From an uncultured Methanosarcinales archaeon (GTDB lineage Archaea > Nanobdellota > Nanobdellia > Woesearchaeales > UBA11576), in contig CAZNGE010000003.1 of NCBI GenBank assembly GCA_964572875.1, positions 12,377 to 76,376 on the forward strand: DNA of 64,000 nucleotides, given 5' to 3'. Below, in pieces: positions 4,057-55,963 of the stretch. How positions within the stretch are numbered: position 1 is the stretch's first letter; each line of letters opens with the position of its first letter. Position numbers and translations under genes: made by a program. The notes below the pieces were generated by a model. That model was given only the letters and a program-made list of their open reading frames with translations, did not search any database and was not told the DNA's origin.

Positions 4057-4080
4057 GTTTAGTACCTGAGCTCCCTTGCC

Positions 4081-4183
4081 GTGCCTATGCCACGCTCGTT
4101 GTCTATTCATCGTATGATCTATTTCGCCCAGCTGCGTTGATTACTGCATATATTCCTGTCAACGCGCTAGGTGGCATCGGCAC
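4081..4183. repeat. intergenic structured hairpin element, family copy A
   Basis: The closing stem is GTGCCTATGCCAC (4081-4093) with GTGGCATCGGCAC (4171-4183), pairing at 12 of 13 positions. The interior shares GCCCAGCTGCG and CGCTAG with copy B at 54937-55045. Confidence 0.55.
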
Positions 4184-4247
4184 TTGCATAGGCGGCTGTG
4201 GCACTCGAACAGCGGTATGGCTTGGAGGTGCTAGAATTACAATAAAG

Positions 4248-8991: not shown

Positions 8992-9096
8992 AAGCACCTC
9001 TATAGCGATACCCATTAGTCAGTGAATATCTTTTATAAAGGTTTCGTTTTACATCTTTACTAAGCCCGTACTTTTCCAGCCCTGAAATTGAGAAAA

Positions 9097-9106
9097 CTTT
9101 AAATAC
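9097..9106 (+). promoter_or_regulatory. TATA box
   Basis: CTTTAAATAC lies about 40 nt upstream of the ATG at 9145. Confidence 0.5.
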
Positions 9107-9144
9107 TCAGCAACCCAATCGACAGTCCAATAGGTGCTATAAAG

Positions 9145-9459
9145 ATGCCGAAAGAGCAGAAGAAAATTGACATACCCTCACCAGAAGAGGTGCCTCCGGA
9201 CAAGCTCAGCACACTGAGCAGGAAGTTCCTGGACTGGAAGACCGGCATGGTCATAGTCATCGGTGTATTGCTCGTGTTCACATTCCTCAATGTCCTGATA
9301 TCAAACCCAACTATCAGCGGATACGCAGTAGTAGACGCTTCAACGCAGGACACTGCAAGGTTCTCAAACATGACATCCATACTCGTTGTCGTGTTCGCGT
9401 TCTTCGGACTCTTCCTGTTCGTGATAACGCACAGGCTGGGAGACAGGGGAAGAGGGTAA
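9145..9459 (+). CDS. small membrane protein
   Basis: Two hydrophobic helices (MVIVIGVLLVFTFLNVLI, ILVVVFAFFGLFLFVI). A T-rich tract follows the stop. Confidence 0.5.
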   Translation: MPKEQKKIDIPSPEEVPPDKLSTLSRKFLDWKTGMVIVIGVLLVFTFLNVLISNPTISGYAVVDASTQDTARFSNMTSILVVVFAFFGLFLFVITHRLGDRGRG

Positions 9460-12308: not shown

Positions 12309-12458
12309 GCAGCTCCACGCTGCTAGACTGAGTTTAGGCTGCAATCTGATTTATTCACTAACCGTGCTTACGGCTTGCGCAATATGCGTAAGTTGGTGGT
12401 CAAGTGCAGCCCATTGTTTATTCATGTCCTGAGGACACGCAAAGAGCGGTGGAGCTGC
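12309..12458. repeat. intergenic structured hairpin element, divergent family copy C
   Basis: A perfect 10-bp closing stem, GCAGCTCCAC (12309-12318) with GTGGAGCTGC (12449-12458). GCCCA at 12409 and CCTGAGGAC sit at positions similar to copies A and B relative to the 3' strand. Confidence 0.4.
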
Positions 12459-52904: not shown

Positions 52905-54764
52905 TCAGTAATTCACCAACACCTCAACATCCCTGCCGAAGATGCCCTTGAGCTTCTCGAAGATGGGCTCCTTGATGAATACTTTCGGCGGTATGTTGTA
53001 TTTGGCGAGATGTTCCTCCAACTCCTCAAGGTTCGACTTCCTTATGTCGCCGAGCGAGCCGTTCTCTAGTATCGTGGCCTTTGTTATCTCACGCTCATCG
53101 GCGTCCACATCATGTATGATGAAAGCAGTGTCTTCCAGCAGCAGGATCTCGCCGTACTTGTCGCCGTGCTTGACCCTTATGCGGGCGCGCTCGAGCTCGC
53201 GCCCCCTCTTGCGCTGCATGTACTCGACAAGGAACTTCACGAGCTCCCTGCTCTCCTTCTTGACATTCTCGATGTCAGCCTTGGTGAGGTTCTTCTCGTC
53301 ATAGTCCTTCTTCGACTTTATCACGTGGTTGAGCATCCTGAGGTATTTCTCAGGTATCTTGCCCCTGTGGACAAGCTCCTGCTCAAAGAACTTGATGACC
53401 TCAACGTCCCTGACGCGCTCGATGCCCTCAAGGGTGAGGACGTCGCGTATTATAGTGACCACTGTCTCATAGACGTGCAGCATGGACTCCTCTTCCTTCA
53501 TCTTCTCGATCTGCGTGAAGAGGCGCTTGAGGCGCTTGAGATACTTGTCTGCCTTGTCAAGAAGCTCATCAACCTCCTTGCCTGAGACCTCCTTGATGTC
53601 GCCGTGCTCTATGCCCTTGTAGTACTTCCTGATCTCCTTAAGGGTCTCGAGGTATTTCTCCTCGAGAAGCTTCTCCTTCTTGACGAACAGGTCCTCCACG
53701 AGATTTATGGTCTCCTTTGGTGTCGGAGGCGGAACGCCATAGAGCATCAGCGCCGCCTGGGTAGGCGTCAGGGTGCTCCAGTACAGCTCTGTCTCGACAA
53801 TCTGCTTGATCTTGCCCTTGACGCGCGAGACCATCTGCTCGCCTGACGCCATGAACATGTCTATAGCCTCTGCGCTGGGCTTGATCTTGCCCATCCTGAG
53901 CAATTGCTTCCAAGGCATGAAAATGCCCCTGTCGTAGAGCGGGACACCATCCCTCAGCACTGTGAAGATGACCGGGTTCGCCTCCTTTATAGACTCCCAG
54001 AAATCAGTCAGGATATATACCTGGATGTTGAGCTTGTTCTTGATGCCGGTCATGTCTCCAGCGTCGAGGCCCATGCCGACGATTATGGCGCGCAGCTTGT
54101 CCTTCAGCTCTGCGCGGGTCATCTTCTTGACGTCAGTGTCATCCACTATTATCGCGACGTCGATGTCAGACTTGTCTGTCGCCTGGCCCCTTGTGAGCGA
54201 GCCGAACAGGACATATGAGACGATGTACTTCTCGAACTTCTTGAGCACCATCTCCTTGTGTATCTCACCTATCTTAAGGGCAGACATCATGCCCGTGTCA
54301 TACACAGGAGCGGACATGGCGAACAGCTGGAGCATCTCGCCCTTGCCGTCATAGCATGACTGCCACACCTCAGAGAGTATGACTGTCTGCGGGACAAGGC
54401 GCTTGTCGATCTCCTGCGCCATCTTGGCCATTATCGCACCGAGCTTGTCCTTGAGCTCCTGCTTGGTCATCTTCTGCGAGTCAGAATCATCCACCAGGAC
54501 CAGGACATTTATCCTGTCCTTATCGACCTTCTCACCTTTCTTCTCAGGAGGGAGCAGGGCAATGCCTATGATGTAATGCTCAAACTTCTTAAGAACGTCT
54601 TTCTGGAACTTGTCAAGCTTGACCTTGATGTCCTTGAGCTTGTCCTGGACATCCTTGGGCAGCTTCTTCAGCATCTCATCCTCTTCTGCCTTCTTTTCTT
54701 CCTTAGCTTCTTTCTTCTCTTCCTGCTTTGCAGCGGATCTGGACTGTTTCTTGGATTTGGTCAT
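52905..54764 (-). CDS. tandem nucleotidyltransferase-fold protein with helical (HEPN-like) C-terminal region
   Basis: ATG at 54764 (MTKSKKQS). The second module has the canonical minimal-NTase motif LFGSLTRGQATDKSDIDVAIIVDDTD. The first module is degenerate (IIGIALLPPEKKGEKVDKDRINVLVLVDDSD). A long helical region follows. Confidence 0.6.
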   Translation of the reverse strand: MTKSKKQSRSAAKQEEKKEAKEEKKAEEDEMLKKLPKDVQDKLKDIKVKLDKFQKDVLKKFEHYIIGIALLPPEKKGEKVDKDRINVLVLVDDSDSQKMTKQELKDKLGAIMAKMAQEIDKRLVPQTVILSEVWQSCYDGKGEMLQLFAMSAPVYDTGMMSALKIGEIHKEMVLKKFEKYIVSYVLFGSLTRGQATDKSDIDVAIIVDDTDVKKMTRAELKDKLRAIIVGMGLDAGDMTGIKNKLNIQVYILTDFWESIKEANPVIFTVLRDGVPLYDRGIFMPWKQLLRMGKIKPSAEAIDMFMASGEQMVSRVKGKIKQIVETELYWSTLTPTQAALMLYGVPPPTPKETINLVEDLFVKKEKLLEEKYLETLKEIRKYYKGIEHGDIKEVSGKEVDELLDKADKYLKRLKRLFTQIEKMKEEESMLHVYETVVTIIRDVLTLEGIERVRDVEVIKFFEQELVHRGKIPEKYLRMLNHVIKSKKDYDEKNLTKADIENVKKESRELVKFLVEYMQRKRGRELERARIRVKHGDKYGEILLLEDTAFIIHDVDADEREITKATILENGSLGDIRKSNLEELEEHLAKYNIPPKVFIKEPIFEKLKGIFGRDVEVLVNY

Positions 54765-54936
54765 TATTGCACCCCGGAACCTTGTTTTAAGCATAAAATA
54801 CTGGTGACTGAGCCATTCTCAACACCGTGCATATGTTAAGGCAGGGAGCTTTATAAATACTTATAAAGGCTATAATATAGGAGTGAGACAAAAAAGTCAT
54901 AGCAGAGCCACCACCATGCGTTCGATTAGATTGTAC

Positions 54937-55045
54937 GCACCCCTGCCACAGCGCTCGCTGACGCATATATTGGCTCTTCTGTTTGCCCAACTGCGATCAT
55001 TAGCACTTCTGAGACTGTGAGCTCGCTAGGCGGTGGCAGGGGTGC
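54937..55045. repeat. intergenic structured hairpin element, family copy B
   Basis: A perfect 13-bp closing stem, GCACCCCTGCCAC (54937-54949) with GTGGCAGGGGTGC (55033-55045). The interior has GCCCAACTGCG (54985-54995) and CGCTAGG (55024-55030), shared with copy A. A TATA-like CTTTATAAATAC lies about 80 nt upstream. Confidence 0.55.
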
Positions 55046-55166
55046 TATCAGAATTGGGTGGAAGGCGGAATATGTTAGATGCAGTGTTGGAGAGGCATAT
55101 GCCGAAACTTTTATAAGGTCTGATGTATATGTTTCGGTTGTTCAAACCACTTAGGAAGGTGATTAA

Positions 55167-55859
55167 ATGGCAAAAAAAGAAGAGAGCAAGACTCCTAATT
55201 ATGACAAGCACAAGAAGTACCATGACCTGGTAGGCAAGCTGCATGACCTTGGTGAGGATGAGCACACCACAGGCCTCGCGAGCCACATACACCAGATAGC
55301 ATCCGAGTATCTCCACGCGAACAAGGGAGATGACGGAAAGGTCAGCTGGGCTGAAAAAGGAGAGGAAGAGCACAGGAAATTCTCAGACTCGCTGTGGGAC
55401 TCTGCGGCAGACAGGATAGCAAAGAACTACCTCAAGCTCAGCGACCAGGCGATCGAAGAGCTCAAGAAGTCAAAGACCCCTGAAGGAGAGAGCGCATGGG
55501 ACAACATGATAAAGACCTATCTCGGCGGCATGGACAAGGAGGACTTCTTCGACAGGGTCAAGTCAGAGGACGAGCTGTCCATAGAGAACATACTCAAGAC
55601 CTACATCAACAACCTGTCAGGCAGGCACCTCCAGTACAGGCATACCTCACTGCTCAGAAAGAACATAAACAAGGCAGATGATCTTGAGGGGGTGGCAGCA
55701 TATCTTGGGGATGCGAAGAAGAACAACAAGAAGGCGTTGAAGCCGCTCAAGGTGCCCAAGAAGCTCAAGAGCCTTGACGAGGCGATGAGCGCGATATCAG
55801 AGGCTTCGCAGTACATACCGAAGAACTACCATCCTGACAAGAAGGAGACGTATCATTAA
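55167..55859 (+). CDS. hypothetical protein
   Basis: 230-aa Lys/Glu-rich ORF with AGGAAGGTGAT upstream. No family recognised. Confidence 0.6.
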   Translation: MAKKEESKTPNYDKHKKYHDLVGKLHDLGEDEHTTGLASHIHQIASEYLHANKGDDGKVSWAEKGEEEHRKFSDSLWDSAADRIAKNYLKLSDQAIEELKKSKTPEGESAWDNMIKTYLGGMDKEDFFDRVKSEDELSIENILKTYINNLSGRHLQYRHTSLLRKNINKADDLEGVAAYLGDAKKNNKKALKPLKVPKKLKSLDEAMSAISEASQYIPKNYHPDKKETYH

Positions 55860-55963
55860 AGCCTCAGGAAACTTTTAGCTTTTTTCTTTGTTTTCATATA
55901 GTATATTATATTGTGTTTAATAACCTTTATATACCAGTTATTTTTAAAAAGAGATGGTAAAAA

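Follow-up and report, generated by a model that had tools for sequence, protein, structure and literature searches.

The 64,000-nt stretch of DNA analysed here (the window) carries two copies, A (4081-4183) and B (54937-55045), of a hairpin element that is interspersed in genomes of Woesearchaeota-type DPANN archaea and specific to that lineage. The element is about 110 nt long and is closed by GC-rich arms of 10-25 bp, which differ in nearly every copy yet remain complementary, and which enclose an inner core and a central motif that are invariant. Interspersed hairpin repeats are a known kind of element, but the combination of free arms, an invariant asymmetric core, phased spacers and conservation in place could not be matched to any described family, and the element is apparently undescribed. 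A literature search that included the exact motif found no description of it, and the only related item was a census of MITEs (miniature inverted-repeat transposable elements), in which a woesearchaeal genome ranks among the highest archaeal densities with 105 per Mb (PMC11602168). The reading that we favour, tentatively, is that of a non-autonomous hairpin repeat, similar to MITEs and to repetitive extragenic palindromic (REP) sequences, which would be handled in its folded form by a structure-specific protein and retained at each locus.

Copy B is a complete type-1 element on the forward strand (54935-55048; 99.2 bits, E = 3e-29 with the covariance model R1). An earlier note on this DNA had reported its perfect 13-bp closing stem, GCACCCCTGCCAC/GTGGCAGGGGTGC; the stem is present and extends to 16 nt, the 5' arm GCACCCCTGCCACAGC (54937-54952) being 94% complementary to the 3' arm GCGGTGGCAGGGGTGC (55030-55045) in an inverted-repeat search. 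Inside the arms lie the invariant 5' core GCGCTCGCT (54951-54959), with a bulged G at 54953 and with G54957-T54959 forming an inner helix, P2, with 55020-55022; the invariant central motif GCCCAACTGCG (54985-54995), located within an unstructured loop of ~60 nt; and the invariant 3' core AGCTCGCTAGGC (55020-55031), of which TCGCT (55023-55027) is unpaired opposite one C. Copy A, also a complete type-1 element on the forward strand (4076-4189; 91.8 bits, E = 7e-27 with R1), has its arms at 4081-4093 and 4171-4183, its 5' core at 4092-4100, its central motif at 4126-4136 and its 3' core at 4161-4172. Its closing strands, GTGCCTATGCCAC and GTGGCATCGGCAC, contain the single T/C mismatch previously described, and it carries a compensated pair, U4099-A4162, where most copies have C-G. 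The comparison of the two copies made in the earlier note was reproduced: the 5' stems differ at positions 2, 3, 6 and 7 with changes at exactly the 3' partner positions, GCCCA(G/A)CTGCG follows the 5' strand at 32 nt (A) or 35 nt (B), CGCTAG lies ahead of the 3' strand, and the interiors are alignable, with 65% identity over 83 nt (E ~1e-3), the sole cross-match of either copy within the window. Both copies fold better than shuffled sequence on both strands (z = -3.2 to -4.5). By our estimate, a 64-kb stretch should contain ~0.2 perfect 13-bp inverted repeats within 300 nt; A and B are taken as real elements because they belong to a family in which 20 metagenome copies and more than 70 genome copies have the same architecture.

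The family was delimited by pattern scans and covariance models. The pattern common to A and B (GCCCARCTGCG, exactly 28 nt, CGCTAGG) gave 44 matches in metagenomes, of which ~20 had the full architecture and the remainder were chance matches in GC-rich coding DNA. A looser pattern, applied to one genome per species, returned at least 80 loci (loci of both scans are given below as L numbers). Besides chance matches in GC-rich bacteria, all genome loci belong to metagenome-assembled genomes (MAGs) of Candidatus Woesearchaeota or Nanoarchaeota and to one MAG labelled Methanosarcinales, one contig of which (L090) has 67% DNA identity to a window gene. The high-GC bacterial matches of both scans were inspected and discarded as chance, and a viral link was rejected, the one viral scan having given a single chance match in GC-rich DNA. 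With a covariance model trained on 20 copies, the window yields exactly two elements, B and A, the genome loci at least 70 matches and the metagenome loci further divergent copies; together with the pattern scans, this amounts to over 100 copies beyond A and B. As lower bounds, at least 34 copies are present in bin.595, at least 18 in YT3_319, and at least 6, 5 and 4 in others.

Aligned without gaps, the true copies share one layout, consisting of a variable 5' arm, GCGCTCGC, a variable segment, (T)TTGCCCAACTGCG, a second variable segment, GCTCGCTAGGC and a variable, complementary 3' arm. Across the 20 copies, 89% of arm cells pair versus 70% in column shuffles, the covariation score is 0.569 versus 0.215, and none of 500 shuffles scores as high, while sliding the partner column brings pairing down to 23-51%. 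The compensatory changes first noticed between A and B thus hold for the family, with 82 double-change cells against 25 in shuffled alignments, a number that was again not reached in any of 500 shuffles. Arms differ even inside one genome (the commonest base per arm column has a mean frequency of 0.51-0.54, versus 0.91-0.95 in the core), and they are visibly related by descent, being variants of GCACCGCCA and GCGCCAGCACCA that are conserved across metagenomes in type 2 as well. The arm helix runs on into the asymmetric core, in which GCGCUCGCU pairs with AGCUCGCUAGGC; there, a G of the 5' strand is bulged, one C stands opposite UCGCU in a 1x5 internal loop, and an inner helix of 3 bp is formed. 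With the central motif, ~32 inner bases are invariant per element. Among 51 diverse copies, pairs 21-106 (CG31/UA10) and 22-105 (GC34/AU9) covary, C25-G103 is invariant and U26-A102 nearly so (UA49/UG2), and the inner helix P2 covaries at 28-96 (GC46/AU2/CG2), 29-95 (CG45/UA5) and 30-94 (UA29/AU4). The core register proposed by RNAalifold (G28-C100, C29-G99) was rejected, as it breaks when bases change, and the covarying register was used instead. The interior measures 79-82 nt in 87 of 89 copies, and its two AT-rich spacers are fixed in length and free in sequence. The central 11-mer GCCCAACUGCG occurs 79 times exactly within elements and never outside them in the 630 kb of loci. Type-2 elements keep both cores with another central motif, e.g., ..CGAGUUUAGU.. 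or UCGAGUAC..UUAAUC.

To the idea that the conserved interior reflects a short protein-coding gene we give next to no weight. Short open reading frames (ORFs) do overlap both copies, and a frame through the 5' arm reads ..P(L/M)P.RSL(7 aa)FAQLR in A and B (six-frame translation PMPRSLSIHRMIYFAQLR* in A and PLPQRSLTHILALLFAQLRSL.. in B), with 5 of the 10 shared residues using different synonymous codons. However, the distance from CGCTCG to GCCCAA differs by 1 nt between subfamilies (GCGCTCGCTGTCG versus GCGCTCGC-ATCG), interior lengths range over 78-83 nt, conservation of stop codons is lacking, a start codon is missing from many copies, and, the stem being palindromic, the opposite strand can be read just as well. 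A small ORF is refuted for the family as a whole by the 1-nt indels and by stops that are not conserved, and the earlier statement that no credible ORF is present stands in the sense that no reading frame is conserved across the family.

In its overall shape, with a helix that closes the molecule, an internal loop that never varies and a motif conserved in the main loop, the element points towards RNA. A structured non-coding RNA family, in which the free helix would close the molecule, the internal loop would serve as a protein platform and the two central types would correspond to two specificities, is a serious, if less likely, alternative; such RNAs might be trimmed from transcripts crossing them and act as ribonucleoproteins (RNPs). 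Many archaeal C/D box sRNAs are cut or trimmed from transcripts that cross them. The strong covariation in the closing helix and in P2 agrees with this alternative, as do the constant interior length, the ~32 positions kept in every copy, syntenic ones included, while the rest is saturated, and the tens of copies per genome at dispersed intergenic sites, as in guide-RNA families. Further support comes from three independent long variants (L026 6623-6779, L016 6441-6603 and L100 4089-4236), in which two hairpins are added at the same place, immediately 5' of CAACUGCG: a c(UNCG)g tetraloop caps the first in all three (UUCG, UGCG, UGCG), and the second is homologous in L100 and L016, with one compensated pair. 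The c(UNCG)g motif has special stability in RNA rather than in DNA, and these hairpins therefore argue for RNA.

Against an RNA stands, first, the mismatch pattern of the arms. There is no excess of G·U-type over A·C-type mismatches (51 versus 67, and 28 versus 22), and one-sided changes from G-C to G-U are rare; this equal frequency speaks against selection on the arms as one RNA strand. Second, on neither strand do TATA-like motifs peak at a particular distance from the arms, and no T-tracts follow the arms. Third, of the 60 copies for which two neighbouring genes were called, 37 do not follow a gene on their own strand. Finally, the loop of ~60 nt between the cores showed no conserved or stable structure on either strand (z ~0), the core-adjacent helix being all that RNAalifold, average-product-corrected mutual information and shuffles revealed. 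A possible second pairing, between the central motif and the 3' core, would consist entirely of invariant bases. Spacers acting as guide sequences were rejected as well, given that syntenic copies differ there. The earlier proposal of a selected RNA or single-stranded DNA structure stands as to the covarying stems, but the covariation is no proof of RNA, because G·U-type and A·C-type mismatches are about equally frequent, half of the double changes in one syntenic pair are of the transversion type, no promoter or terminator lies at a fixed place and orientation is unrelated to genes. The free, unstructured spacers of fixed length, the lack of promoter and terminator, the gene-independent orientation and the flips in place (see below) point towards DNA, or against a one-strand RNA.

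Searches for known RNAs gave the same picture as the earlier note, which could not assign the element to any of the classes it named. Rfam 15 (4,227 families, known ribozymes included; gathering thresholds) has no match in the window, neither at A or B nor elsewhere, and ARAGORN finds no tRNA. With E up to 10, only two noise matches, outside the element or at its edge, were obtained around copy B, and with E up to 1, none was obtained on the elements in L016, L026, L100 or L037. The models do work on these genomes, and the loci are archaeal, as confirmed by an archaeal signal recognition particle (SRP) RNA at L037 6221-6496 (150 bits), ~540 nt from a type-2 element. Downstream of copy B, at 55079-55130, a sub-threshold likeness to a C/D box snoRNA (16 bits, E = 6.5) lies over the TATA box of the next gene and should most probably be taken as noise. 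The family resembles archaeal C/D box sRNAs and further small RNAs closed by a terminal stem (e.g., Y RNA) in its tens of dispersed copies, its covarying terminal stem beside conserved motifs and its fixed box spacing, and in some archaea the genes of these RNAs are promoterless. Unlike them, the family consensus contains no C box (RUGAUGA), D box (CUGA) or k-turn signature, its spacers are unconserved between syntenic copies (36-48%), and it lacks a G·U bias and an Rfam match.

The genomic context of the elements is intergenic and indifferent to the neighbouring genes. Of 90 copies, 80 are clear of any ORF of at least 100 aa. Copies occur in either orientation, typically 4-40 nt from the 3' end of a gene and 50-150 nt from a 5' end. 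Among the 60 copies with two called neighbours, those between co-directional genes are sense in 16 cases and antisense in 21, 16 lie between divergent and seven between convergent genes. Element orientation did not correlate with GC skew (42/77), AT skew (47/77) or coding strand (39/77). Genes located between elements of the same orientation (L016, L037) are unrelated housekeeping genes, e.g., for an aminoacyl-tRNA synthetase and a signal-peptide peptidase, and on these grounds integron-like cassettes were rejected.

Comparison of syntenic loci shows that the elements come, go and flip. At L034 6191-6303, an element fills a site that in the syntenic L120 is a 10-nt spacer between operon genes, the only repeat flanking it being TTCAAA, which occurs on either side but offset, with 1 nt and 10 nt between it and the arms. 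An element is present at L101 6433-6545 and missing from the window counterpart (9049-9175), and an all-against-all comparison gave further cases of presence and absence (L029 versus L073, L016 versus L062). The copy B site is syntenic in YT3_319 (L100) and MEGAHIT-group-1.33 (L074): in all three, an element directly follows the conserved GACAAAAA(A/T)GTCAT, with unrelated arms and spacers, and in L074 it is inverted with respect to the window and L100. A second flip at a syntenic site distinguishes L070 from L043 and L084. In L100 (3177-4236, corresponding to window 54935-55915), the 230-aa gene that comes after copy B has given way to a 239-aa gene that is unrelated to it and lies on the opposite strand; two elements mark the exact limits of the exchanged segment, and the flanking genes are conserved with 76-89% protein identity. 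Bin.595 shows a younger expansion, with identities of up to 93% and 58 pairs at 85% or more. In this genome (L072 1060-1150 and other loci), elements were also seen inside longer G+T-rich modules, e.g., gacttcttggtttg, with duplicated partial 5' arms and ttgttattggttgtgcgggtg, and the repeated unit there is therefore larger than the hairpin.

These empty sites also bear on whether a short mobile core might insert into the loops of hairpins, e.g., terminators, that already existed at each locus, the different stems being the different targets. Arms that are locus-specific, the many copies lying 4-40 nt past a stop codon and the lack of target duplication would agree with this, which we nevertheless regard as very improbable: the empty syntenic sites (L120 and window 9049-9175) hold neither arm, the element carries its arms along in more than 20 copies of bin.595, the arms of different copies are related by descent, and between the syntenic copies L043 and L084, 6 of 11 arm pairs differ, all six compensated and three of them of the transversion type.

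The same rearrangements can be read as the work of a host DNA nucleoprotein site, in which two imperfectly inverted cores and a central bending or binding site would be phased by the AT-rich spacers, with strand exchange in the identical inverted arms; this could be the target of a structure- or homology-dependent recombinase, acting in inversion or cassette exchange much as at integron attC sites or invertons, or else an architectural or replication-linked site. Although we consider it rather unlikely, a good deal agrees with it. Spacers of strictly fixed length and free sequence are typical of phased DNA sites, and the arms behave as inverted repeats kept by conversion, with G·U-type equal to A·C-type mismatches and many double changes of the transversion type. 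The flips in L074 and L070 and the gene replacement in L100, with its exact boundaries, are in line with such a site. In addition, non-adjacent elements of one locus have the same orientation in 13 of 13 comparisons (L016, L037, L019, L101, L121, L075, L045, L026, L100, L111 and the window), with both agreements and disagreements on longer contigs. Elements also abut head to head, 0-9 nt apart, in four loci (L038 204-428, L111 2273-2496, L090 7708-7936 and L088 3411-3641), in three of which a type-1 is joined to a type-2 element, an arrangement that none of the readings explains. The metagenome contig L003 (1,081 nt) starts exactly at the inner edge of the copy B 3' arm (window 55030), which would also fit a DNA site.

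On the other side, copy B has the same sequence (100% identity) and a single orientation in five independent assemblies, and fast inversion of this copy is improbable on that ground (an inverted allele would show the junction CCCCTGCCACCGCCTAGCGAGC). As for an inverton, differences in orientation were seen between related species at the two syntenic sites. Moreover, no recombinase gene lies near any copy, the flanked genes are mostly housekeeping ones, with an SRP RNA nearby, and are neither cassette-like nor arrayed beside an integrase, orientation is unrelated to GC skew, AT skew and coding strand, an 80-bp interior is very short for inversion, and the c(UNCG)g hairpins would be left unexplained. 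As to contig ends, many other elements lie within 100-300 nt of one, and contigs that start or end at elements could reflect either assembly breaks at repeats or structural polymorphism.

Under the hairpin-repeat reading that we favour, the element would be copied, inserted or recombined while folded on itself, either as a single strand or as a cruciform. A trans-acting, structure-specific protein, which we infer, would recognise the invariant core and the central motif and not the arm sequence; this would explain both the free yet paired arms and the orientation indifferent to genes. An inserted copy would then be retained by selection or by continual arm-to-arm correction, and read-through from neighbouring genes would add a stable hairpin to the transcript.

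Several observations weigh against this reading. The flanks of ~90 copies contain no direct repeat that could be a target-site duplication and no conserved flanking target. Clustering of 434 neighbouring ORFs revealed no recurrent neighbouring gene, and among the 39 window ORFs scanned there was no transposase, integrase or reverse transcriptase. A long autonomous relative was not found in the 630 kb of loci, nor were orphan or far-apart core motifs enclosing a gene. The outermost arm bases are the least conserved part of the element, the opposite of terminal repeats recognised by a transposase. The c(UNCG)g hairpins of the long variants, and the coherent orientation within loci, which no reading explains, also count against it. 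Finally, apart from bin.595, copies are old (median identity 61-64%, 61% in YT3_319) and their cores are still intact. As an example, 32 of 32 core and central bases are kept between copy B and its L100 counterpart and 31 of 32 between L043 and L084, while in syntenic pairs the spacers are 36-48% and the arms 22-65% identical. Old copies with intact cores, together with the conserved cores of syntenic copies, imply selection on each copy and not only on active masters; for selfish repeats, such conservation in place is unusual. This pattern is unlike that of dead transposon copies decaying: either each copy is selected or a continual correction process is at work. The earlier argument that the copies are not decaying MITE ends is hence upheld by the ~32 inner positions that stay invariant despite saturation elsewhere, but the elements do behave as mobile or duplicating DNA.

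The comparison with known repeats and folded sites is likewise divided. REP sequences and REPINs, whose RAYT partner is a domesticated Y1 HUH transposase, are also short non-coding intergenic hairpins in tens to hundreds of copies, in either orientation, often just past stop codons, without target-site duplication and with long persistence in a lineage, and their propagation is thought to rely on a folded single strand and not on terminal repeats. However, in REP sequences the palindromic arm and a GTAG/CGTC tag are conserved and the spacer is free, whereas here the arms are free and the inner core and central motif invariant; the REP system is bacterial, the tag is absent from our family, and no RAYT-like gene is found among the 39 window ORFs scanned. 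MITEs (Correia, ERIC, RUP and archaeal ones) share the size of ~100-150 nt, inverted ends, intergenic location, multiple copies, polymorphic presence and the long hairpins formed when transcribed. Here, in contrast, target-site duplications are lacking, conservation is lowest at the outermost bases, old copies keep the core instead of decaying, and arms differ in nearly every copy where shared terminal inverted repeats would be expected; no related transposase-bearing element was found in the 630 kb of loci. The scans for the family returned many copies, but the identical termini and target-site duplications that mark a MITE were not among their features.

The attC sites of integrons are alike in being folded single-strand sites set by structure (extrahelical bases, imperfect helix), with variable stems and a position right after a gene, and gene replacement is associated with the element at one locus (L100). 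They differ in that attC is conserved at the base of the hairpin (RYYYAAC/GTTRRRY) and variable at the top, the reverse of what is seen here, the attC motifs being absent from A, B and the consensus. Furthermore, copies of our family are dispersed among housekeeping genes, with no integrase among the neighbours and no arrays.

A third member of the family had been proposed in the earlier note at 12309-12458, but this region has no sequence similarity to A or B and is missed by both covariance models at E = 5-10 with filters off. It is a 10-bp inverted repeat, GCAGCTCCAC/GTGGAGCTGC, that encloses 130 nt; it lies upstream of the Rad50-like gene and folds well (z about -3 to -4). By our estimate, ~15 perfect 10-bp inverted repeats within 300 nt arise by chance in 64 kb. 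Because it shares no sequence with A or B, is missed by both models and such repeats are frequent by chance, we take it as unrelated.

Both window copies have what appear to be half-elements beside them. Directly upstream of copy B, 54901-54935 on the forward strand is a probable remnant of the 5' half of an older element (an arm plus GCG..TTCGATTAGATTG). It occupies the place of the element's 5' part in the syntenic L100, right after the conserved GACAAAAAAGTCATA, and its likeness to arm and core was judged by eye and is matched by no model. Directly after copy A, a second 3' core and arm, TAGGCGGCTGTGGCAC (4189-4204, forward strand), follows in tandem and is identical at 16 of 16 positions to the 3' end of the L022 element. 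These remnants suggest that elements insert into, or recombine with, one another.

Further upstream of copy B, the segment 54846-54900 comprises a double TATA region that is nearly palindromic, CTTTATAAATACTTATAAAG, and behind it an inverted repeat of the GTGACAAAAAAGTCAT type (in the window GTGAG...). The same block is preserved in L100 and L074, and it probably serves as the promoter/operator of the gene for a 619-aa nucleotidyltransferase-HEPN protein (52905-54764, minus strand). The window as a whole is part of the archaeal core chromosome, with a split rpoB, rpoA'/A'' and ribosomal proteins L15e and S7, and is syntenic with YT3_319 contigs at 76-89% protein identity. It also holds a BatA/VWA/MoxR/DUF58 cluster, a Rad50-like ATPase and many large ORFs (389-621 aa) without any Pfam match, a gene content typical of a poorly characterised DPANN chromosome.

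It is possible, though we would not call it likely, that the family represents a new class of host-maintained, structure-recognised module in DPANN archaea, and not junk repeats, either as a small RNA that would assemble with a protein on the bulged core and present the central 11-mer, with types 1 and 2 among its specificities, or as a folded-DNA site of the attC/REP type that drives local gene replacement and inversion. In either case, tiny streamlined DPANN genomes keep dozens of these 110-nt modules, each with ~32 immutable bases, and some host function or a very effective propagation machinery must pay for so many kept copies. The family is a clean natural experiment: stems may take any sequence but have to pair, spacers keep a set length, and more than 100 copies are available on which an RNA mode can be tested against a DNA mode. 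In practical terms, the elements break assemblies and could serve as lineage markers. If a partner protein were found, it would define either a novel archaeal RNP or a structure-specific DNA system of the REP/attC type, the first to be described from archaea, and the latter, if true, could explain gene replacement and micro-inversions in uncultivated Woesearchaeota.

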